DNA from: Candidatus Nealsonbacteria bacterium
GTDB taxonomy: Bacteria > Patescibacteriota > Minisyncoccia > Minisyncoccales > RBG-13-36-15
Reading direction: 5' to 3'
Length of the DNA: 64,000 nt
Assembly: GCA_011050465.1 (NCBI GenBank)
Contig: DRFQ01000009.1
Coordinates: 64,334-128,333 of the forward strand
Part shown: positions 587 through 61,393 of the stretch, in pieces
Numbering within the stretch: position 1 is the first letter of the stretch
Layout: each line of letters starts with the position of its first letter
Position numbers and translations under genes: made by a program
The notes under the pieces: model-generated
What the model was told of the DNA's origin: nothing
Seen by the model: the letters and a program-made list of their open reading frames with translations, nothing else
Database searches by the model: none

Positions 587-638
587 CAGGAAGGCGGCCC
601 CGCACAAAAGCTAAGCCCGGCGCCAGATCCGAGCCCAG

Positions 639-728
639 CACCAGAGCGAAGCTCGGTGCTGGACCAGTCCCGAACTGAACTTCGTTCTAGTTCGGGGCTT
701 TATGCGGGGTAAATTTTTTGGTAGAATC
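639..728 (+). repeat. Family B intergenic cassette, copy 1 (hairpin 669-696, then ttttttggtagaat)
   Basis: Near-identical to 15091-15168 and 18091-18180. It ends in a TGnTAGAAT extended -10-like box 25 nt before the ATG at 754. Confidence 0.8.
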
Positions 729-753
729 AAATAAAAGCCTCGAAAAAAAACTA

Positions 754-3700
754 ATGCAGCTAGACTTAAAAAAACTAAACAAAGAGCAAAAAGAGGCGGT
801 GATCCACAGCAAGGGGCCGCTTTTGATTGTGGCAGGATCTGGAACCGGGAAAACAACGGTGATTACCCAAAGGATTGCTTATTTGATTGAAAAGGGGATG
901 GCCAAACCGGAAGAAATTTTAGCTGTTACCTTTACTGAGAAAGCGGCCGAAGAAATGGAGGAAAGGATTGATAGGCTTTTACCATACGGTTACGTTGATT
1001 TATGGATTTTAACTTTCCATTCTTTTTGCGAAAGAGTTTTAAGAGACCACGCTCTGGACATTGGTCTACCGGCCGATTTCAAGATTTTGGAACCGACGGC
1101 GGGATGGCTTTTGGTGCGTCAGAACCTGGACAAGTTTGAACTTGATTATTACAAGCCCCTGGGCAATCCGACTAAATTCATTCAGGCTTTAATTTCTCAT
1201 TTTTCCCATTGCAAAGATCAGGAGATTTACCCCGAAGATTATTTGGAATACGCCGATAAATTAAAAACCAGAGACGATGTGCCGGAAACTCAAGAAACAG
1301 AAAGGATAAAGGAAGTGGCCAATGCCTTCCACGTTTATCAAAGATTGCTTCTGGAAAATAGCTCTTTAGACTTCGGAGATTTGATAAATTACTGTCTGAA
1401 GCTATTTAAAAAAAGGCCTTTGATTCTGAAAAAATACAGGGAAAAATTCAAATACATTTTAGTTGACGAATTTCAGGATACTAATTGGTCACAGTATGAA
1501 TTGATAAAGATTTTGGCGGCGCCCAAAAACAATCTGACCGTCTGCGCTGATGACGACCAGGCGATTTACCGCTGGAGGGGGGCGTCTTTTGCCAATATTA
1601 TCCAATTTATAAAGGATTTCCCGAAAGCAAAACAAATATCTTTGGTTAAAAATTACAGGTCTGCCCAGAATATCCTGGATTTGGCCTACAAATTTATAAA
1701 AGCCAACGATCCCGATCGGCTTGAATACGTGAATAAAATCAATAAAAAATTAATTGCAGACAATAAGGGGAAAGGAATAATTGAGCATATCCACGCCAAA
1801 AGTCTGGACGAGGAAGCCGGGAAAACAATCAGGAAAATCCTGGAAGTTTTAAAAAAAGATAAAGAGATAAATTACAATGATATTGCTATTTTAGTTAGGG
1901 CGAACAACGCGGCAAATTCTTTCACAAAAGCCCTGGAAAGAGCGGGTCTGCCCTATCAATTTTTGGCTTCAAAAGGGCTTTATGCAAAGCCCTGTGTTCT
2001 GGACGTTATTTCCTATTTCAAACTTTTGGACAATTACCACGAAAGCCCGGCGGTTTACAGGGTTCTGAATCTGCCCTTTTTGGGAATTCCCTACGATGAT
2101 ATAGTGAAGCTCACTCAATATGGCCACCGCAAAACAAAATCTCTTTACGAGGTGATGGAAGAGCTCCCTTTGGTTTCCGGGATATCTAAAAAAACGCAGA
2201 GAAAAACCGCTTTTATTCTGAGCTTGATTAAGAAACACATCGCCCTTTCGCGGGAGAAAGCGGTTTCGGAAATGCTGATAGCTTTTTTGAAAGATTCCGG
2301 CTATTTGAAATATCTGGTGGATAAAGACGATAAAGAGCAGATTGATATTCTCAACCAGTTCTACAAAAGAATAAAGAATTTTGAAGAAGCCGCGACAGAG
2401 CCAAATTTAAAGAATTTCATGGAAGAAATAACTTTTGAAATAGAATCGGGAGAAGAGGGGAAGCTTGAGTTTGATCCCAAACAGGGTCCGGATATGATAA
2501 AAGTGATGACCATTCACGGAGCCAAAGGTTTGGAGTTCAAATATGTCTTTTTGGTCAATATGGTGGACAAAAGATTCCCGACCATTGAAAGGAAAGATTT
2601 AATTGAGCTTCCCGAAGAATTGATTAAAGACATCAAGCCCGAGGGAGATGTCCATTTGCAGGAAGAAAGGAGGATTTGTTACGTGGCGATGACTAGGGCC
2701 AAAAAAGAGCTTTATTTCACTTCAGCCGAGGATTACGGCCTGGTGAGGAAAAAGAGATTGTCGCGATTTTTGATAGAAATGGGCTATAAAGATAAATCCG
2801 AAACCGACCGGACGCGAAACGGACTCCCCGGAGGGTTGCATTCGCCAGATCGAGCGAAGCGAGGGACTCCCCGGAGGGTTGCATCCAAAAACAGTTTGCT
2901 TGCGCCATCTTTCATTAAAACTGCCCCTTTCGCCGAAGTAGCTCTCGCCTCGCCGAAGCCTTCGGCGAAGCGCGGGTCGGCTACGAAGGGTAAAAGAAAA
3001 ACAGGATCAGACTATCTTCCCGGACATTTTTCTTTTTCCCAACTGGCCGCTTTTGAAAAATGTCCCCTGCAGTACAAATTAAATTTTATTTTAAAAGTTC
3101 CCATCAAAGGCAAGGCTGTGTTCTCGTTCGGAAAAACAATGCACAACACTTTTTATAATTTTTTGAAATACGTAAACGAAAACAATAAAAACAATCAAGG
3201 CAATTTGTTTGGTTTTGCCGCCTCTTCCGCGAAAGAGGCGAGCCTCGCCCTTTCGGGGCGGGAAGATAGGTTGAGATTAAATGATCTGATGGAAATTTAC
3301 GAAAAAAACTGGATTGATGAATGGTACGAAAATAAAAATCAAAAAGAAGAATACTACAAGCTCGGCAAGAAAATAGTTAAAGATTTTTACGAAGAATTTG
3401 TAAAAAATCCGCCGAAGATTTTAAAAATTGATAATACCCTTGCTTTAGAAATGCCGTTTAATTTGAAAATAGGAGGGCATACCTTATACGGCGTAATAGA
3501 TAGAATTGATGAAACGGAAGGGGGAGTGGCGATTATTGATTACAAAACAGGAAATTCGAAAGAAAAATTGGTCTTGAGCGACAAGGAACAATTATTAATT
3601 TATCAAATAGCGGTTGAGGAGATTTTTAAAATAAAACCGAAAGAACTAATTTATTATTATTTGAACGACGGCAAGAAAGCGTCTTTCCTGGGTTCGGATA

Positions 3701-3834
3701 AGGAAAAAGGTCGTCTTAAAGAAAAAATCATTCAGGAGATCGAAGAAATAAAAAAGAGCGATTTTAAGGCAACGCCCGGCTGGCAATGCGGATTTTGCGA
3801 CTTTAAAGATATCTGTGACTTCGCAGAAAGGTAA
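754..3834 (+). CDS. UvrD/PcrA-type superfamily 1 helicase fused to a C-terminal PD-(D/E)XK nuclease with a Cas4/AddB-like four-Cys cluster
   Basis: Walker A GSGTGKTT, DEFQDT, the VKNYRS and TIHGAKGLEF helicase motifs. C-terminal IIDYKTG plus Cys residues (EKCP ... WQCGFCDFKDIC). The start is moved to ATG 754 because the track start at 718 overlaps the -10-like box. Confidence 0.85.
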   Translation: MQLDLKKLNKEQKEAVIHSKGPLLIVAGSGTGKTTVITQRIAYLIEKGMAKPEEILAVTFTEKAAEEMEERIDRLLPYGYVDLWILTFHSFCERVLRDHALDIGLPADFKILEPTAGWLLVRQNLDKFELDYYKPLGNPTKFIQALISHFSHCKDQEIYPEDYLEYADKLKTRDDVPETQETERIKEVANAFHVYQRLLLENSSLDFGDLINYCLKLFKKRPLILKKYREKFKYILVDEFQDTNWSQYELIKILAAPKNNLTVCADDDQAIYRWRGASFANIIQFIKDFPKAKQISLVKNYRSAQNILDLAYKFIKANDPDRLEYVNKINKKLIADNKGKGIIEHIHAKSLDEEAGKTIRKILEVLKKDKEINYNDIAILVRANNAANSFTKALERAGLPYQFLASKGLYAKPCVLDVISYFKLLDNYHESPAVYRVLNLPFLGIPYDDIVKLTQYGHRKTKSLYEVMEELPLVSGISKKTQRKTAFILSLIKKHIALSREKAVSEMLIAFLKDSGYLKYLVDKDDKEQIDILNQFYKRIKNFEEAATEPNLKNFMEEITFEIESGEEGKLEFDPKQGPDMIKVMTIHGAKGLEFKYVFLVNMVDKRFPTIERKDLIELPEELIKDIKPEGDVHLQEERRICYVAMTRAKKELYFTSAEDYGLVRKKRLSRFLIEMGYKDKSETDRTRNGLPGGLHSPDRAKRGTPRRVASKNSLLAPSFIKTAPFAEVALASPKPSAKRGSATKGKRKTGSDYLPGHFSFSQLAAFEKCPLQYKLNFILKVPIKGKAVFSFGKTMHNTFYNFLKYVNENNKNNQGNLFGFAASSAKEASLALSGREDRLRLNDLMEIYEKNWIDEWYENKNQKEEYYKLGKKIVKDFYEEFVKNPPKILKIDNTLALEMPFNLKIGGHTLYGVIDRIDETEGGVAIIDYKTGNSKEKLVLSDKEQLLIYQIAVEEIFKIKPKELIYYYLNDGKKASFLGSDKEKGRLKEKIIQEIEEIKKSDFKATPGWQCGFCDFKDICDFAER
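2798..2990 (+). repeat. GC-rich repeat block embedded in frame in the helicase-nuclease linker
   Basis: A 21-nt perfect direct repeat ggactccccggagggttgcat lies at 2821-2841 and 2864-2884. The palindrome cgccgaagccttcggcg is also present. GC is far above the flanking coding sequence. Confidence 0.7.
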
Positions 3835-14333: not shown

Positions 14334-14378
14334 TAATCGCCAACCTGTCCGTCTATGGAGGAGAAGGCTGTTTTTTGC
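14334..14378 (+). repeat. Family C repeat copy (atcgccaacctgtccgtYtRtggaggagaa)
   Basis: Matches 17573-17603. A weaker relative occurs at 16137-16190. Confidence 0.6.
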
Positions 14379-14485
14379 TAAGATTAAGTTATAAACAAGA
14401 AGAAAATTATTGAAAATATTAGAAGCTATAAAAGAAAACGATAATCTTTATTTAAGCTGCCTTAAAAGTGTATCGGAAGTAAAAT

Positions 14486-15091
14486 ATGAATAAAATCTAT
14501 ATTTTTTTTATATTAATAATTTTAATTTTGGGGGGTTATTTTTTCATTGTCCAAAATAGGGGAGAGGAATCCATGGACCGTAATATTATAACTCCGCTCG
14601 ACACTAATATGATTGCGACAATGCAGACTAATTTTGGTGAGATTAAATTAGAGCTTTTCTCGTCTGATGCGCCAAAAACAGTCGAGAATTTCATTAAGCT
14701 TGCTGAGTCAGGTTTTTATGATGGCGTAAAATTCCACCGAGTGATTAAAGGGTTTATGATTCAAGGTGGCGATCCTCTCAGTAAAGACAATGCTTTGAAA
14801 GATAGATGGGGAACAGGGGGGCCCGGCTATACTTTCTCAGATGAAATCCACTCAAAGAACCGTAATGTTGTAGGCACCATTTCCATGGCCAATGCTGGAC
14901 CAAACACAAATGGCAGTCAGTTTTTTATCAATACTAATGATAATAACAGTCTCGATAACAAGCATACTGTTTTCGGTAAAGTAATAACAGGGATTGATAT
15001 CGTTGAAAATATTGAAAATGTAGCCACAGAAGGTCCGGACCGTCCGGTCGATGATGTAATTATCGAAAGTATTAAGATAACAAGCAACTAA
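14486..15091 (+). CDS. ppiB: Cyclophilin-type peptidyl-prolyl cis-trans isomerase with an N-terminal membrane anchor
   Basis: FHRVIKGFMIQGGDP, SMANAGPNTNGSQFFI and HTVFGKV motifs. N-terminal hydrophobic helix. Confidence 0.9.
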   Translation: MNKIYIFFILIILILGGYFFIVQNRGEESMDRNIITPLDTNMIATMQTNFGEIKLELFSSDAPKTVENFIKLAESGFYDGVKFHRVIKGFMIQGGDPLSKDNALKDRWGTGGPGYTFSDEIHSKNRNVVGTISMANAGPNTNGSQFFINTNDNNSLDNKHTVFGKVITGIDIVENIENVATEGPDRPVDDVIIESIKITSN

Positions 15092-15168
15092 GCACGGTGC
15101 TGAACCAGCCCCGAACTAGAACGAAGTTCAGTTCGGGGCTTTATGCGGGGTAAAGTTTTTGGTAAGAT
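15091..15168 (+). repeat. Family B intergenic cassette, copy 2 (hairpin 15109-15138 is inverted relative to copy 1)
   Basis: The flanks are colinear with copies 1 and 3. The central hairpin is the exact reverse complement of 669-696. The copy ends in tttttggtaagat, 23 nt before the ATG at 15192. Confidence 0.8.
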
Positions 15169-15191
15169 AGAAAGCAAAATTTTATTCTAAT

Positions 15192-15902
15192 ATGAATCAG
15201 AGAAAAAAAAGAAAATTTATTATTGCTTTGGGTGGATCAATTGCCTTTCCGGAAAAAATAAATACTTCCTTTCTTCGGAAGTTTTATCTGTTTATAAAAA
15301 AAGAAATTAAAAAAGGTAATAAATTTATTATTGTGTGCGGAGGAGGGAAGATTACCAGAAAATATCAGAAGGCTGCTTCAAACATAACGAAAGTTTTAGA
15401 TGAGGACAAGGATTGGCTGGGAATTCATGCTACTCGCCTCAATGCCCATTTTTTAAGAACATTATTTAGAAAGGAAAGTAATGAGGTTGTTTTTGACAAT
15501 CGCTTTAAGCTTAAAGGGTTCGGAAGATACTCAATAATAATTGGATCTGGGTGGGAGCCAGGTTGGTCAACTGATTTTGTTGCTATTCAAATTGCCGGAG
15601 ATTTTAAGATTGACCATGTTATAATTTTAGGGAAACCCGCCTATGTTTACACCGCTGATTTTGAAAAAGACAGGAAAGCACGACCTATTAAGAGATTGAC
15701 CTGGAAAGATTATTGTCAACTTATTCCTTCTGACTGGAAGCCGGGCCTTAATACTCCGGTTGATCCTATGGCAGCAAGGCTGGCGGAGAGAAAAAATATT
15801 AAGGTTATTGTGGCCAATGGGAAAGATTTAAATAATCTGGGAAAGATTTTAAAAGGCGAGGAATTCGAAGGAACTATTTTATCTCGGCAGTCAGATATAT
15901 AA
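15192..15902 (+). CDS. pyrH: Amino-acid-kinase-fold UMP kinase, archaeal-like type
   Basis: The sequence IIALGGSI ... IVCGGG ... G.EPGWSTD is typical of the short archaeal-type uridylate kinase. Confidence 0.65.
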   Translation: MNQRKKRKFIIALGGSIAFPEKINTSFLRKFYLFIKKEIKKGNKFIIVCGGGKITRKYQKAASNITKVLDEDKDWLGIHATRLNAHFLRTLFRKESNEVVFDNRFKLKGFGRYSIIIGSGWEPGWSTDFVAIQIAGDFKIDHVIILGKPAYVYTADFEKDRKARPIKRLTWKDYCQLIPSDWKPGLNTPVDPMAARLAERKNIKVIVANGKDLNNLGKILKGEEFEGTILSRQSDI

Positions 15903-16123: not shown

Positions 16124-16203
16124 ATAAATCCATTCCAAATCGCCAAGAGGGCCTCGCCCGTAGGGCTATGGCTGAGAGCGGTTTTTTGATACAGTAAATT
16201 AAT

Positions 16204-17466: not shown

Positions 17467-17512
17467 GCCTATGGGCAAGGCGGACGGATACAGTAACTTT
17501 ATTCAAGGTCCC

Positions 17513-17548
17513 TAGTCAGCGTAGTATTGAGGCCGACCGAGAGGCCTA
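17513..17548 (+). repeat. Family D repeat copy (ctagtcagcgYagtatYgaggccgaccgagaggcc)
   Basis: Second copy at 23226-23262. Contains an aggcc/ggcct hairpin. Confidence 0.6.
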
Positions 17549-17659
17549 ATTGATAGAATAGCAGACACAAAAATCGCCAACCTGTCCGTTTGTGGAGGAG
17601 AATGTTTTCTCCGCCGTAACGCTATGAAGGCGGGTGGTTTTTTAGTATAATAAGGGAAT

Positions 17660-18090: not shown

Positions 18091-18180
18091 GCACCAGAGC
18101 TGAGCACGGTGCTGGACCAGTCCCGAACTGAACTTCGTTCTAATCCGGGGCTTTATGCGGGGTAAATTTTTTGGTATAAT
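18091..18180 (+). repeat. Family B intergenic cassette, copy 3 (ends in ttttttggtataat)
   Basis: Near-identical to 639-728. The right arm of the hairpin is mutated (aatccgggg). A TGGTATAAT extended -10 lies 32 nt before the ATG at 18213. Confidence 0.8.
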
Positions 18181-18212
18181 GCAATAATGAAGCAAACAAG
18201 ATAAAAACAAAT

Positions 18213-18560
18213 ATGAAATTTTCTCTTAAAACAACCAATTTAGAATTAACTCCTGATCTTTCCAGTCATATTGAGACAACGATGAACAGTTTGGATAAAT
18301 TTATTGAGAATGCGGATTCAGTTGTCCGGGCCTGGGTGGAGATTGGTCGAATTTCTCAACACCATAGATCGGGAAAAATCTATCGAGCTGAAGTTCAGGT
18401 TCATTTACTCGGAAAATCAGTGCGTTCCGAAGCAGTAGCAAAGACAATTTTCCAGGCCATTAATGAGGTGAAAGACGAATTGCAGCGGGAATTAAAACAA
18501 TATAAAGGAAAAAAAATAGCCGAACGAAAAAGAGGAGGCAGAAGAAATTTAAAAAAGTAA
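18213..18560 (+). CDS. hpf: Ribosome hibernation-promoting factor / RaiA family
   Basis: The 115-aa sequence has the typical pattern MK....TNLELTP.L..HIE..... L.KF.. and ..AEV.V. Confidence 0.8.
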   Translation: MKFSLKTTNLELTPDLSSHIETTMNSLDKFIENADSVVRAWVEIGRISQHHRSGKIYRAEVQVHLLGKSVRSEAVAKTIFQAINEVKDELQRELKQYKGKKIAERKRGGRRNLKK

Positions 18561-18800: not shown

Positions 18801-18988
18801 TTTCAGATTGATGAACTATTTCCAATCCCTATTTGAGCGCGGTCTACTCCGAGTTTACCTGTGGTGAGCTTGTGGAATCCATCGGAGGGTTCGGAGAGAC
18901 TGAGCCGGGTCAGTCGACATTGAATCAATCTAGAGCCACCGCCCGAGAGCTGTCAGCCTTGGGTTTTGCTATTCTGATTTTAATAAAT

Positions 18989-19061
18989 AAGAGGATGGCT
19001 AAGGCCAAACCTCTTTTTTGTTTGTCTTGAGGCGGAAAGAATAGTAAAATAGTAGAAAGAT
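18989..19061 (+). promoter_or_regulatory. Family E terminator-plus-promoter module, copy 1
   Basis: Hairpin aagagg..cctctt plus a T-run, then TTGTCT (19022-19027), a 17-nt spacer and TAAAAT (19045-19050). Repeated at 31890-31963; the promoter half also occurs at 20678-20720. Confidence 0.6.
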
Positions 19062-20647: not shown

Positions 20648-20677
20648 AATGATTTTTGGTGCCTTTGGCGAAGCTTT

Positions 20678-20720
20678 ATTTGTCTTAAACCGAAAATGGT
20701 AGTAAAATAGTAGAAAGATT
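20678..20720 (+). promoter_or_regulatory. Family E promoter half, copy 3
   Basis: TTGTCT (20680-20685), a 17-nt spacer, TAAAAT (20703-20708), then agtagaaagatt directly abutting the ATG, as at 31964. Confidence 0.55.
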
Positions 20721-20939
20721 ATGGATTTCCAAGAAATTCAAAAAAAAGTTGTTGAGAACGTTTTCAATTATGGTAAAAAATACAATGTTGAGATTGACGA
20801 GGACTTTGTATTATTTAAGCTATATGAAGAAGTAGGGGAGTTGGCACAGTCCGTTTTAATCCACAGAAAGAAGTGTAGGCCCGAGAAATACCTTTCAGAT
20901 GAAAAATCAAAAGAAGAATTAGCACACTGTTTAATTTAG
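20721..20939 (+). pseudogene. MazG-like nucleotide pyrophosphohydrolase, C-terminally truncated fragment
   Basis: The KLYEEVGELAQ motif (the EExxE metal site of MazG-type all-alpha NTP-PPases) is present. The ORF stops at ELAHCLI, where the second helix pair should continue. Confidence 0.5.
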
Positions 20940-21884: not shown

Positions 21885-22885
21885 ATACACACTTTTGGCG
21901 GTTTGGTTAGTTAATAATTTTAAGCATTTGATTCGGCGTCTTTCCGTTAAGTCCGCAATGTTTTGTGTCGTTGTATTCCATATTCCACAATCTTAATTTG
22001 TATCTTAGATCTTCGAAAGATTTAAATTCAGTTTCATCATAGAATTTCTCTTGATCTTCTCTGTGAGATCTCTCTACAAAACTGTTCTGCCGGGGTTTGC
22101 CCGGGTCAATCAAATGGTGGGGTATGCCCAATTCCTGGCAGAGTATATCGAAGGGGTGCAGCCTCGGGTTTAAAGGGTCTGTGCTTTTATTATATCCTGT
22201 ATACCTGTTGGTGAAACAAGAAGTATTATCTGTCTTAATTGCTTTAATTTCAAAGTTGGCAATGGCTATTAGTTCTCTCAAAAACCTTATCGCGCTGAGA
22301 TTGGAAGCATCCTCGTATGCTTGCAAATACCTCCACCTTGAGCCGCAATCTATGGCTGTAAATTGATAATATCTCTGCCCTTTTATCTTATCTGGAACAT
22401 ATTTTACATCAATCTTTACCAGCTCACCCTTCTTTAAAGGAATTCTAACATATTTGTATTTAATCTTCCTTGTCCTGTATTTTCTGGTCAGTCCTTCATT
22501 TTTAATTATCTTCTGGATAGTTTGGTAATGTATGTTTATTCCTTCTTCCCCTAAGTCTCACTGCACTTTCAAGGCGCATTGCTTTTTCTCTTTTCTCAAT
22601 TCAATAATTCTTTCCTTTATCCTGATGGGCGTTTCTTTGGGATTTGTTTTGGGCCTTGTAGATTTCGGTTCCAATCCCTCCTCTCCGTATATCTTGTAGT
22701 TATGCAGCCACCTTTCTAATGTTCTTTTAGCGGTAGGGACACATTTTGGCGGCGTTCGTAATGCTTACTTCTTTGTTCAAAATGGGCAATATCCATCTTA
22801 ACCGTTTCTCTTTAATTGTTTTGGCCATATTTACACACATATACCGAAACTATATCAGCTTCGGTAAAACCCGCCATATGTGTAT
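21885..22885 (-). mobile_element. Decayed IS481-family-like insertion sequence (about 1 kb)
   Basis: Imperfect terminal inverted repeats: atacacacttttggcggttt (21885-21904) versus the reverse complement of aaacccgccatatgtgtat (22867-22885). They enclose an rve-type transposase reading frame. Confidence 0.6.
21907..22828 (-). pseudogene. IS481-like DDE (rve) transposase, disrupted
   Basis: The N-terminal HTH part MAKTIKEKRLRWILPILNKEVSITNAAKMCPY is followed by a frameshift. An in-frame TGA follows (ALKVQ*DLGEEG). The frame then continues YYQFTAIDCGSRWRYLQAYEDAS into the 139-aa ORF, which carries IKTDN and VERSHRED. Confidence 0.7.
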
Positions 22886-23225: not shown

Positions 23226-23262
23226 CTAGTCAGCGCAGTATCGAGGCCGACCGAGAGGCCTT
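23226..23262 (+). repeat. Family D repeat copy
   Basis: tagtcagcgcagtatcgaggccgaccgagaggcc matches 17513-17548. Confidence 0.6.
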
Positions 23263-31853: not shown

Positions 31854-31889
31854 AGACTTAGTTTTTCTTATTGGCGGATTTGTATAGAT

Positions 31890-31963
31890 AAGAGGATGGC
31901 TAAGGCCAAACCTCTTTTTTGTTTGTCTTGAAACGGGAATAGTAGTAAAATAGTAGAAAGATT
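31890..31963 (+). promoter_or_regulatory. Family E terminator-plus-promoter module, copy 2
   Basis: Same hairpin and T-run as 18989. TTGTCT (31923-31928), a 17-nt spacer, TAAAAT (31946-31951), with the leader agtagaaagatt abutting the ATG at 31964. Confidence 0.6.
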
Positions 31964-50401: not shown

Positions 50402-51238
50402 ATGATTACCAGGAGATTTAGAAAACCTTACCGGATTAGAAAGAAAAAATCGATTTTACGCAATCGATTTTTTTGGCTAGGCATTATAATCATTATTATT
50501 GCCGGAGCTATTTTTTATTTTTTATTTTTTTCAAAGACTTTCCAGATTAAACAAACTATTGTTACCGGCGAAGAAAAGGTCTCAGAAGAAAGTCTTAAAT
50601 TATTAATAGAAAAAAGGTTAGAAAATAGAATATTGTTTTTTAAGACAAGAAGCCTTTTCTTGGTTAACTTAAATGGAATAAAAGATGATATTTTAGATAA
50701 CTTTCCCCAGATAGCAGAAGTTAAAGTCAGTCAAAGTTTCCCTGATACTATTAATATTATTGTAGTAGAAAGATTGGATTTGGCAATTTGGTGCCAAACA
50801 GAACATTGTTTTTTACTTGATAGAAAAGGAATAATTTTTGACTTAGTTAGAAATGACATTTCTACTGAATCTGAGAAGGTTCCGGGCGAAATTGTTTTGA
50901 CAAAGATTATAGACAGAAGAGATATAAGTTCTTTTAATTTGGGAGATCAAATCATTGAAGAAGATGTTTTAGTATCGATTCTCGACATTAAAAAACACAT
51001 AAAAGGAAATCTTGAAATAGAAATAGAAGAGTTTGTTATTCTTAATCCAGGAAGGTTGAACGTTAAAACCGCCGAAGGCTGGGAGATTTATTTTGATCTT
51101 CAAAAGGATATCTCCTGGCAGCTGACAAAATTAAATTTGGTTTTAAAAGAAGAAATCCCCCCGGAAGAAAGAGGGAATTTAGATTATATCGAGCTAAGGT
51201 TCACCAGGGTCTACTATAAATATAAAGCAGGAGATTAA
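50402..51238 (+). CDS. ftsQ: Cell division protein FtsQ/DivIB
   Basis: Basic N-terminus, TM helix, POTRA (I..I.V.G......I), and position after the mur/fem genes. Confidence 0.75.
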   Translation: MITRRFRKPYRIRKKKSILRNRFFWLGIIIIIIAGAIFYFLFFSKTFQIKQTIVTGEEKVSEESLKLLIEKRLENRILFFKTRSLFLVNLNGIKDDILDNFPQIAEVKVSQSFPDTINIIVVERLDLAIWCQTEHCFLLDRKGIIFDLVRNDISTESEKVPGEIVLTKIIDRRDISSFNLGDQIIEEDVLVSILDIKKHIKGNLEIEIEEFVILNPGRLNVKTAEGWEIYFDLQKDISWQLTKLNLVLKEEIPPEERGNLDYIELRFTRVYYKYKAGD

Positions 51239-53118
51239 TCAATATAATATACGAAAATTGAGTAGCCGATTTTTTTTATAAGTTTGTATTTATCAAGCCA
51301 GAGATAATATCCTACAGGTTGGTCAAAGCCATAAGCTGGTTGGCCTTTTCCTCCCTGCAAAAGAGTAACAGATACCGCCAGATAGCTTCCCTTGGGAAGC
51401 TTTTTTGGATTCCACCTCCCCTGCCAGGGCCTAAATCTTTTGCCCAAATAATACGTTGTATCTCCTCCACCGAAATAATCAACGTAAATTTCATTAATTC
51501 CTTCTTTTTCTATCCACGTTTTTAATCTCTTTAAATCCTGGCCCCAGTCTAGATTGGAATCAACAGCATAAGTATGGCCATTATTTGGCCCGCCGACTGT
51601 TTCATTGAAATAAGAAAGAAAATGAGGATAAGTTTTTATAACCGAAACAGCCTGCCAGAGAATTAAAATAATTAAAATTGAGTATTTAATAAGTTTGAAC
51701 AGGCGATTTCTTTCTGTTTTTAATAAAACAATGATCCCGCCGCCGACCAGAATATAAACAAAAGGAAAGGTGGGAAGCAGGTGTCGGACGCCAATGTTTA
51801 AGTTGCTGCTTAAACTTGTTCCCCAATATATCAGAAGCCAAACCAAGAAAACAAATTCAGTGAAGTGATCTTTTATCCAATTTCTAAGACGGGAAAGAGT
51901 TTGCCTCCAGGACATTCGGCTGAGCCCTTCGGCAGTGAGCTCAGGACGAACCTGCTCAGTCGAAGCCAAAAGCCTCTTTATTGAGTAAGCGACGAAAAGC
52001 AAAGTTATCAAAGTTAAAATATGAAAAGCCAAGGGTTCCTTAATAATATAAACAATAGGGAAGTATTGAATCCAGCCTGCAGCTGAAATTTCTCCTAAAA
52101 AGTAAGTAGTATTACCGCCGGCCGCCCTTCCTGTAGCCATAAAAACACCTAAAAAATAATGACTCCAAGGCTTTAGAATCGGACGTTCTGCCATCCAACC
52201 GACAATTTCTGCGGGAGTCCCCAGTTTCAAGGGAAGATTAGGCAAAATATTATTAAGGGGATGGTCTTTTAAAAACTCTTGAGCATAATCTTCTATCTTT
52301 TCTGTGGGTAAGTTTAAAACATGATATTGGTATACAGGCCAGATTAAAAGAAAAGCAATGATAAAAACCAGAATAATCTTTACACCATAAGAGAAAAATT
52401 GTTTAATTTTTTCTTTCTCAACTTTAAATATTATCCAAAGAAAGAAGATAATGATAAAAAGAGGAAAGAGAAGGATTAAAGAGAATTTTAAAAGTTGAGC
52501 TATTGCAAAAGCAATACCAGCTAAAATAATATTCTTATAAGTAGGGGTTTTTAAGAATTTTAGAAAGTAGTAAATACCCAGAACTGCTCCGGCCGCCGCG
52601 GCGACATCTGTGGTGACCAATCTGCCGTGAGCGAGAAAATTAGGTGAGAAAACAAACAGAAACAAGGACAGAAGCGCAGCCTTGTTTCCAAAAAGTTTTC
52701 TTGTCCAGAGGAAGATAAACCATCCTAAAAATATCAATAATAAAATCATGGGCAGCCTCGACCAGAATAAGATTTGGTCAGGATCGTTGCCTGAACGGTA
52801 TAAAAATTGATAGGCAAAATCGAATTGATGCCACCAGACAGGTTTCTCGTCTTGAATCCAAGATGAATCATCTTTTGGGAAATTAAGATTTAGAAACAGA
52901 AGCGGGATAGCAGCAAGGTCTTTGATTAATGGGGGATGCTCCGGATTAAGCCTCATATCCTTTTGAGTTAGATAGGAATAGCCAGCTGAGACATGGGCAG
53001 TTTCGTCAAAAGTAAAAGAATCCTCGAGTATACTGAAAATAGCCATCAAGAACATAGATAGAAGCAATATTCCAGCGATAATATAGGTCAAGTCATTTGG
53101 AGACCTCAATTTTGACAT
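51235..53118 (-). CDS. GT39/PMT_2-type phospholipid-carrier-dependent glycosyltransferase
   Basis: FDETAHVSAGYSY ... NPEHPPLIKDL loop-1 motif in a polytopic membrane protein. Confidence 0.8.
   Translation of the reverse strand: MSKLRSPNDLTYIIAGILLLSMFLMAIFSILEDSFTFDETAHVSAGYSYLTQKDMRLNPEHPPLIKDLAAIPLLFLNLNFPKDDSSWIQDEKPVWWHQFDFAYQFLYRSGNDPDQILFWSRLPMILLLIFLGWFIFLWTRKLFGNKAALLSLFLFVFSPNFLAHGRLVTTDVAAAAGAVLGIYYFLKFLKTPTYKNIILAGIAFAIAQLLKFSLILLFPLFIIIFFLWIIFKVEKEKIKQFFSYGVKIILVFIIAFLLIWPVYQYHVLNLPTEKIEDYAQEFLKDHPLNNILPNLPLKLGTPAEIVGWMAERPILKPWSHYFLGVFMATGRAAGGNTTYFLGEISAAGWIQYFPIVYIIKEPLAFHILTLITLLFVAYSIKRLLASTEQVRPELTAEGLSRMSWRQTLSRLRNWIKDHFTEFVFLVWLLIYWGTSLSSNLNIGVRHLLPTFPFVYILVGGGIIVLLKTERNRLFKLIKYSILIILILWQAVSVIKTYPHFLSYFNETVGGPNNGHTYAVDSNLDWGQDLKRLKTWIEKEGINEIYVDYFGGGDTTYYLGKRFRPWQGRWNPKKLPKGSYLAVSVTLLQGGKGQPAYGFDQPVGYYLWLDKYKLIKKIGYSIFVYYID
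51907..51967 (+). repeat. Family A GC-rich element, in-frame intragenic copy
   Basis: The 61 nt are identical to 61325-61385. On the minus strand they encode ASTEQVRPELTAEGLSRMSW within the GT39 protein. Confidence 0.85.
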
Positions 53119-57744: not shown

Positions 57745-57768
57745 CGCTCAGCAACGAAGTCTCAAAGT

Positions 57769-57830
57769 ACCGACCCTCAAAATCCCAGGACATTCGGCTG
57801 AGCTCAGTCGAAGCCCGAGATTTTGGGGTC
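57769..57830 (+). repeat. Family A GC-rich element, short intergenic variant
   Basis: accgaccctcaaaatcccaggacattcggCTGAGCTCAGtcgaagcccgagatt. Stem gaccctcaaaatc/gattttggggtc. Confidence 0.8.
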
Positions 57831-61277: not shown

Positions 61278-61308
61278 AGTTTATCGTTCGGTTGCCGAGC
61301 CGCAAATC

Positions 61309-61393
61309 ACCGACCCTCAAAATCCCAGGACATTCGGCTGAGCCCTTCGGCAGTGAGCTCAGGACGAACCTGCTCAGTCGAAGCCCGAGATTT
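61309..61393 (+). repeat. Family A GC-rich element, long intergenic variant
   Basis: Its ends match 57769-57822, with 30 extra nt between CTGAGC and TCAGTCGA. The core is identical to 51907-51967. Confidence 0.85.

Follow-up and report, generated by a model that had tools for sequence, protein, structure and literature searches.

A hairpin core turned around in place within a repeated intergenic cassette of Candidatus Nealsonbacteria, probably by a replication template switch

One of three copies of an intergenic cassette in a Candidatus Nealsonbacteria genome carries a hairpin whose core has been turned around in place. The 28-nt core of copy 2 (15110-15137) is the exact reverse complement of the cores of copy 1 (669-696) and copy 3 (18122-18149), and the flanks, GGTGCTG(G/A)ACCAG and GCTTTATGCGGGGTAAA, are colinear across the flip. 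The flip is real and fixed; it appears to be a neutral scar of a known mutation type, probably left when replication switched templates at a near-palindrome, and is no working genetic switch.

The DNA analyzed (here called the window) is a 64-kb stretch of the genome of this member of the Patescibacteria/CPR, which comes from marine sediment; it has ~36% GC, and most of its genes lie on the plus strand. It holds three copies of the cassette, at 638-734, 15079-15175, and 18091-18187, all within 17.5 kb (Table 1), and a scan of the window for the hairpin pattern returned three matches where 0.01 would be expected by chance. Copies 2 and 3 are 5'-truncated versions of a long form that is carried by copy 1 and by L009, the sole outside relative found. 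The long form (598-713) is strongly structured (z = -8.95) and is closed by inverted termini, CCCCGCAcAAAAGC (598-611) and GCTTTAtGCGGGG (697-709). It is flanked by GGCGG on one side and by a T-run and the extended -10 element TGGTAGAAT (719-727) on the other, and the gene that follows encodes a UvrD-like helicase. The hairpin of copy 2 begins 16 nt past the PPIase stop codon, and the 3' boundary of that cassette lies at 15155, where homology with a ~95% relative (L010) takes over at 15156; downstream come the native T-run and the extended -10 element TGGTAAGAT (15160-15168) of the UMP kinase gene (15192-15902). Copy 3 is followed by the extended -10 element TGGTATAAT and then by a ribosome hibernation factor gene (18213-18560).

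Table 1. Cassette copies and their hairpins in the window
Feature	Position	Strand	Remarks
Cassette copy 1, long form	598..713	+	116-nt GC-rich multi-hairpin module
Copy 1 hairpin, orientation A	666..699	+	T·G at stem base, 668/697
Cassette copy 2, short form	15079..15175	+	Starts directly after PPIase stop codon (15089-15091)
Copy 2 hairpin, orientation B	15107..15140	+	Arms AGCCCCGAACT / AGTTCGGGGCT, 11 bp, perfect
Cassette copy 3, short form, orientation A	18091..18187	+	Core 18122-18149, 3' arm decayed to TAATCCGGG

The core of copy 1 is CCCGAAC T GAAC TTC GTTC TA GTTCGGG, with 669-696 reading CCCGAACTGAACTTCGTTCTAGTTCGGG. That of copy 2 is CCCGAAC TA GAAC GAA GTTC A GTTCGGG (CCCGAACTAGAACGAAGTTCAGTTCGGG), and its hairpin has a 1-nt bulge (A, on the 5' side), an inner stem GAAC/GTTC, and a GAA triloop. 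The palindromic arms are 11 nt long (AGYCCCGAACT / AGTTCGGGGCT), and the true asymmetry comes down to one bulged base and the triloop, TTC or GAA. Read as they stand, copies 1 and 2 are identical at 57 of 72 positions; with the 28-nt core flipped, the count rises to 67 of 72. All 10 of the asymmetric core positions agree with the flip, and the inverted match between the two copies has 34-nt arms that are 97% complementary. A systematic scan of the 64-kb window for further reverse-complement cores within colinear flanks found none besides copy 2.

The preliminary description had reported the turned core and the colinear flanks, and direct reading, the 10 asymmetric positions, and the gain in identity all confirm that observation. 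Its argument that simple duplication cannot yield a flipped core in fixed flanks is likewise supported, and the explanation it proposed is of the right class: the palindrome was inverted where it stood, through template switching or recombination between its arms. Several of its details need correction. The two strings it quoted as strict reverse complements differ in length (29 versus 30 nt) and at the stem base, where copy 1 has T at 668 and copy 2 has C at 15109; the stem arms, given as 8 bp, are 11 nt long; and to the two copies it described must be added the third, which has the copy 1 orientation.

The template switch that we favor would have run as follows. In the lineage of copy 2, the nascent strand would have left its template just ahead of the stem, re-annealed through the 11-nt arm onto the complementary strand, copied the hairpin backwards, and then, within the 3' arm, switched back to the template it had left. 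A single interstrand switch of this kind would both flip the bulge and the triloop and turn the stem-base T·G into C-G, a structurally neutral change that then became fixed. When copy 2 flanks were combined with a copy 1-type core (T at the stem base) and one switch was simulated, with the template left before the stem-base T and resumed at the last G of the 3' arm, the observed copy 2 was obtained base for base. A simulated reciprocal inversion inside the perfect arms left one mismatch. With the same flanks, the predicted RNA fold has an energy of -27.0 kcal/mol in either orientation and the DNA folds have -15.3 and -15.6 kcal/mol; because stability is unchanged, the flip is expected to be neutral.

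Two features of copy 2 are those by which template switches are recognized: its changed bases are the reverse complement of local sequence, and inverted arms are present at both switch points. A template switch between strands "inverts the loop sequence," and examples of loop inversion, some of them in bacterial rRNA, have been described (PMC8794818). Mönttinen & Löytynoja (2022, PMC8794818) report that a compensatory mutation combined with a loop inversion, the pattern that copy 2 appears to match, is extremely rare in large rRNA surveys. The presence of orientation A in copy 1, copy 3, and L009 suggests that A is ancestral and B derived. Copy 2 is, however, also the most divergent copy elsewhere, with further flank differences that set it apart from copies 1 and 3. 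The C at its stem base could therefore be the older state and the T in copies 1 and 3 the younger one; template switching would then no longer have the edge over arm recombination of explaining the sequence by one event. The A-to-B polarity is drawn from only four copies, neither the rooting nor the one-event argument that depends on it is secure, and the replication mechanism itself is inferred.

The main rival to template switching is an exchange between the short arms, either by recombination within the molecule or by cutting and rejoining of a cruciform, and static sequence cannot separate these processes from a template switch. Inversion by this route would also leave a fixed, passive state and would require a separate T/C substitution, hence two events where one template switch suffices. 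We consider it rather unlikely. The 11-nt inverted arms do bracket the flipped segment, and one more substitution is not costly in a copy that has other independent ones; against this, a loop of ~8 to 14 nt is very tight for reciprocal exchange. Homology of 7 to 11 bp is, moreover, far below the usual requirement of RecA-type recombination, which counts against arm recombination. In plastomes, inversions of 5 to 50 bp between stem-loop inverted repeats of 11 to 24 bp are said to be widespread (Kim & Lee 2005, as cited in PMC12928735), and exchange between the arms is the model put forward for them; the flip in copy 2 is likewise a 5- to 50-bp segment inverted between short stem-loop inverted repeats.

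All three copies lie between co-directional genes, directly 5' of an extended -10-like element. This design recurs in relatives (L010-L012 and L023-L026), where a small GC hairpin ending in GGCGG precedes TTTTTTG(G)-TAnAAT, and relatives at orthologous positions have a GC hairpin, then TTTTTTGG, then TAnAAT. We also noted a hairpin (often AATCGCCAA…GGCGG) followed by TTTTTTGG and TAnAAT at 14335-14384, 16150-16195, and 17600-17651 of the window, at ~6840-6865 of L023, and at ~295-325 of L024. The arrangement recurs across the clade, with a terminator-like T-run that overlaps a putative extended -10 promoter. Relatives join GGCGG directly to TTTTTTG(G)TAnAAT, and the long-form cassette stands between GGCGG and TTTTTTG (junctions at 598-713 of the window, ~400-500 of L009 on the minus strand, ~940-975 of L010, ~9955-9985 of L011, ~1750-1800 of L012, and ~280-310 of L025); in this respect, the long form has the look of a sequence inserted where terminator and promoter meet. 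In the ~95% relative, homology to the window starts exactly at 15156, that is, at the T-run. The cassette thus ends at ...GCGGGGTAAA(K) and is a fast-turnover module, not conserved sequence. This GC-rich hairpin module is specific to the lineage and evolves fast; it sits where the upstream transcript ends and abuts the T-run and putative extended -10 promoter of the next gene.

The terminator and promoter roles of the cassette are putative. The stem is strong, with a predicted RNA stability of -24 to -27 kcal/mol; the tail right after it is UUUAU, a weak U-tract at which a consensus scan called no terminator, and the T-run TTTTTT comes 14 to 15 nt further on. The copy 3 hairpin, with its decaying arm, reaches -5.1 kcal/mol (z = -1.0). 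Wobble positions in the stem (T·G on the plus strand) would fit an RNA-level role in the upstream transcript. We considered the cassette as a known RNA family and set this aside: Rfam at the gathering threshold gave no match to it and, over the whole window, returned one tRNA only, and a permissive Rfam scan of 440-760 gave sub-threshold matches only, the majority of which fall on a canonical terminator (461-500). A LexA/Cheo-box was also set aside as unsupported. The hairpin has GAAC/GTTC half-sites, and copy 1 precedes the UvrD-like gene, but the half-sites are separated by N3 or N14 where N4 would be needed; every near-match to CGAAC-N4-GTTCG that the window contains is off-register and falls inside one of the three hairpins; and the genes after copies 2 and 3 are not of SOS type, with LexA not seen among the ORFs checked.

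It is improbable that the hairpin is a palindromic module in its own right, REP/BIME-like or RPE-like and free to lie either way round, or that copy 2 was converted from an opposite-strand cassette elsewhere in the genome. The genome does contain several GC-rich palindromic repeat families, some nested or within ORFs, and the insertion-like long form just described would suit such a module. However, the pattern scan of the window found the hairpin solely inside the cassette and at a constant position. The ~18 kb past the window ends added no further copy, leaving just three clustered copies, all on the plus strand, in the ~82 kb examined. Neither many dispersed copies nor a RAYT was found: no HUH/RAYT-type gene and no Y1/HUH domain was seen among the ORFs scanned in the window. 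Searches of public genomes and metagenomes yielded one real relative. The 20-mer GGGGCTTTATGCGGGGTAAA matched GTDB genomes once, a chance match in coding sequence (L001), and its one real relative in metagenomes was L009, in orientation A; a 17-mer search of viral contigs found nothing. The low, clustered copy number points to local duplication or conversion and would not suit a dispersed mobile family.

Other repeats of the region were recorded along the way. A second GC-rich palindromic repeat family occupies 51907-51967, 57758-57823, and 61298-61393; a 61-nt stretch shows 100% identity between 51907 and 61325, the first of these copies falls within a PMT_2 glycosyltransferase ORF (51235-53118, minus strand), and, compared with the copy at 57803, 61343-61372 is a nested insert of 30 nt. 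The UvrD-like ORF (718-3834) has, at ~2790-3000, a GC-rich stretch (up to 72%) with a duplicated GGGACTCCCCGGAGGGTTGCAT motif in frame. A 36-nt GC-rich direct repeat, 94% identical, stands at 17512-17547 and 23226-23261, 5.7 kb apart. A second repeated upstream cassette, 76 to 91% identical among its copies at 18976-19061, 20675-20750, and 31877-31962, comprises a terminator-like hairpin, TTGTCT-17-TAAAAT, and a common GTAGAAAGAT leader. Within the cassette of copy 1, the hairpin upstream of the flipped one (641-666) has three clustered differences, GAGCGAAGCTC versus GAGCTGAGCAC in copy 3, the same site reading GAGCCGAGCAC in L009 and AACTAAGCAC in copy 2; these differences create a perfect inner stem, GAGC/GCTC, and may be another palindrome-perfecting event.

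We give little credence to a broader reading in which the cassette is a mobile or conversion-prone "terminator-promoter" module of CPR bacteria and its palindrome a recurrent, recombinase-independent flip hotspot. If this were true, orientation would vary among copies and lineages, perhaps tuning read-through into the downstream gene.

The states of the individual loci bear on the idea, raised in the preliminary description, that the segment may still be invertible. Orientation was read in assembled contigs, which can hide a rare minority orientation. Locus 2 is flipped in ENA assembly ERZ940451, in the Logan contigs of SRR7787142, SRR1555743, SRR1555744, and SRR1555748, and in ERZ23486227, and locus 1 is in orientation A in five assemblies from three projects. 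ERZ23486227 represents a strain that is ~99% identical (44 mismatches in 4.5 kb) and shares the orientation states at all three loci, with B at locus 2 and a decayed A at locus 3; no recurrent (homoplasious) flips were seen. The ~95% relative was dropped as an informant on orientation: the cassette is absent from its orthologous locus 2, which has a different set of GC-rich hairpins instead. One fixed orientation per locus in all assemblies checked and in the ~99% strain thus speaks, at the assembly level, against continuing inversion.

A live switch, by which inversion of the hairpin between a terminator and a promoter would alter termination or promoter coupling (phase variation), is very unlikely and, at the assembly level, effectively refuted. 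The hairpin does lie directly 5' of a promoter-like extended -10 element, and the paralogues do show two orientation states. Contrary to what had been proposed, no separate terminator-like structure lies ahead of the hairpin in copy 2; the hairpin is itself the terminator-like element. The ~8 to 14 nt between the arms are far too short for a recombinase synapse, the promoter-like -10 element lies outside the arms, fold energy is equal in both orientations, and the arm of copy 3 is decaying. Recombinase genes were absent from positions 1 to 18.9 kb of the window (Pfam tables). Of the ORFs scanned from 19 to 55.8 kb (100 aa or longer), the one match of this kind was an rve_3 fragment (21907-22326, minus strand), a 139-aa ORF with the rve_3 integrase-core domain only, an IS remnant. 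The only tyrosine recombinase seen in the ~82 kb examined is a 318-aa Phage_integrase-family (Xer-like) protein encoded at 19184-20140 of L027, ~7 kb past the 3' end of the window and ~56 kb from the flip. In these assemblies, then, we found at the locus no nearby serine or tyrosine recombinase, no second orientation, and neither the length for synapsis nor a promoter within the segment.

Contigs assembled at k=31 (L003, L004, L006-L008, L018-L021, Logan) end in or at the hairpin of locus 2 and, at locus 1, a short way upstream of the hairpin. These breaks were discounted as a sign of heterogeneity, because copy 2 has a 31-mer in common with copy 1 read in reverse complement and because of the identity between copies 1 and 3. 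The breaks and the shared 31-mer are also what could suggest an assembly artefact at a palindrome that matches copy 1 in reverse complement. In three runs (SRR7787142, SRR1555744, and SRR1555748), Logan contigs nevertheless extend from the copy 2-specific left flank through the B-type loop, and those from two runs (SRR7787142 and SRR1555743) extend from the B-type loop into the colinear right flank; the MEGAHIT assembly (k=127) links the B-type core to copy 2-specific flank bases, and the assembly of a separate project is identical to it at locus 2. These independent assemblies refute the artefact.

We conclude that the flip adds a new example to a mutational process already known; its host is unusual and its configuration unusually clean, and it reveals no new regulatory or recombination system. 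Judged by its sequence, copy 2 appears to have the features of a template-switch mutation and none of the inverton or REP/BIME features that we looked for. As a natural case it is a clean one: a hairpin of an uncultivated CPR bacterium has been turned around in place, possibly with a compensatory correction of its arm. It illustrates how template switching may remodel terminator-like hairpins without damaging them. Such clusters of changes mimic many independent mutations in ordinary alignments, and the palindromes that produce them break de Bruijn assemblies.

Several known systems resemble this configuration in part. In the Hin/Gin, FimB/E, and Bacteroides-type invertons, inverted repeats bracket a segment beside a promoter, as here; in contrast, the segment described here is tens of times too short, lacks a promoter and a recombinase, and has one orientation per locus. 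REP/BIME mosaic elements are GC-rich, imperfect, intergenic 3' palindromes that occur in either orientation within a mosaic, a likeness offset by the very low and local copy number found here, the absence of a RAYT among the genes seen, and the confinement of the hairpin to the cassette. Small hairpin-associated inversions in chloroplast noncoding DNA were reportedly described by Kelchner and Wendel in 1996. Chloroplast hairpin inversions (Kim & Lee 2005, as cited in PMC12928735) flip a few to tens of nucleotides of noncoding DNA near gene 3' ends and leave the flanks unchanged, as in copy 2; they recur homoplasiously among close lineages ("flip-flop"), whereas the state here is fixed in the assemblies and the ~99% strain and lies in a bacterial chromosome. 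In the short-range template switches at quasi-palindromes (the Ripley model and the four-point model of Löytynoja & Goldman; PMC8794818), the mutation cluster is a local reverse complement bordered by inverted arms, the loop ends up reversed at its original site, an arm mismatch is corrected in the same event, and secondary structure is kept. Those cases were seen in rRNA and miRNA phylogenies, and the present one lies between paralogous intergenic repeats of a CPR bacterium.
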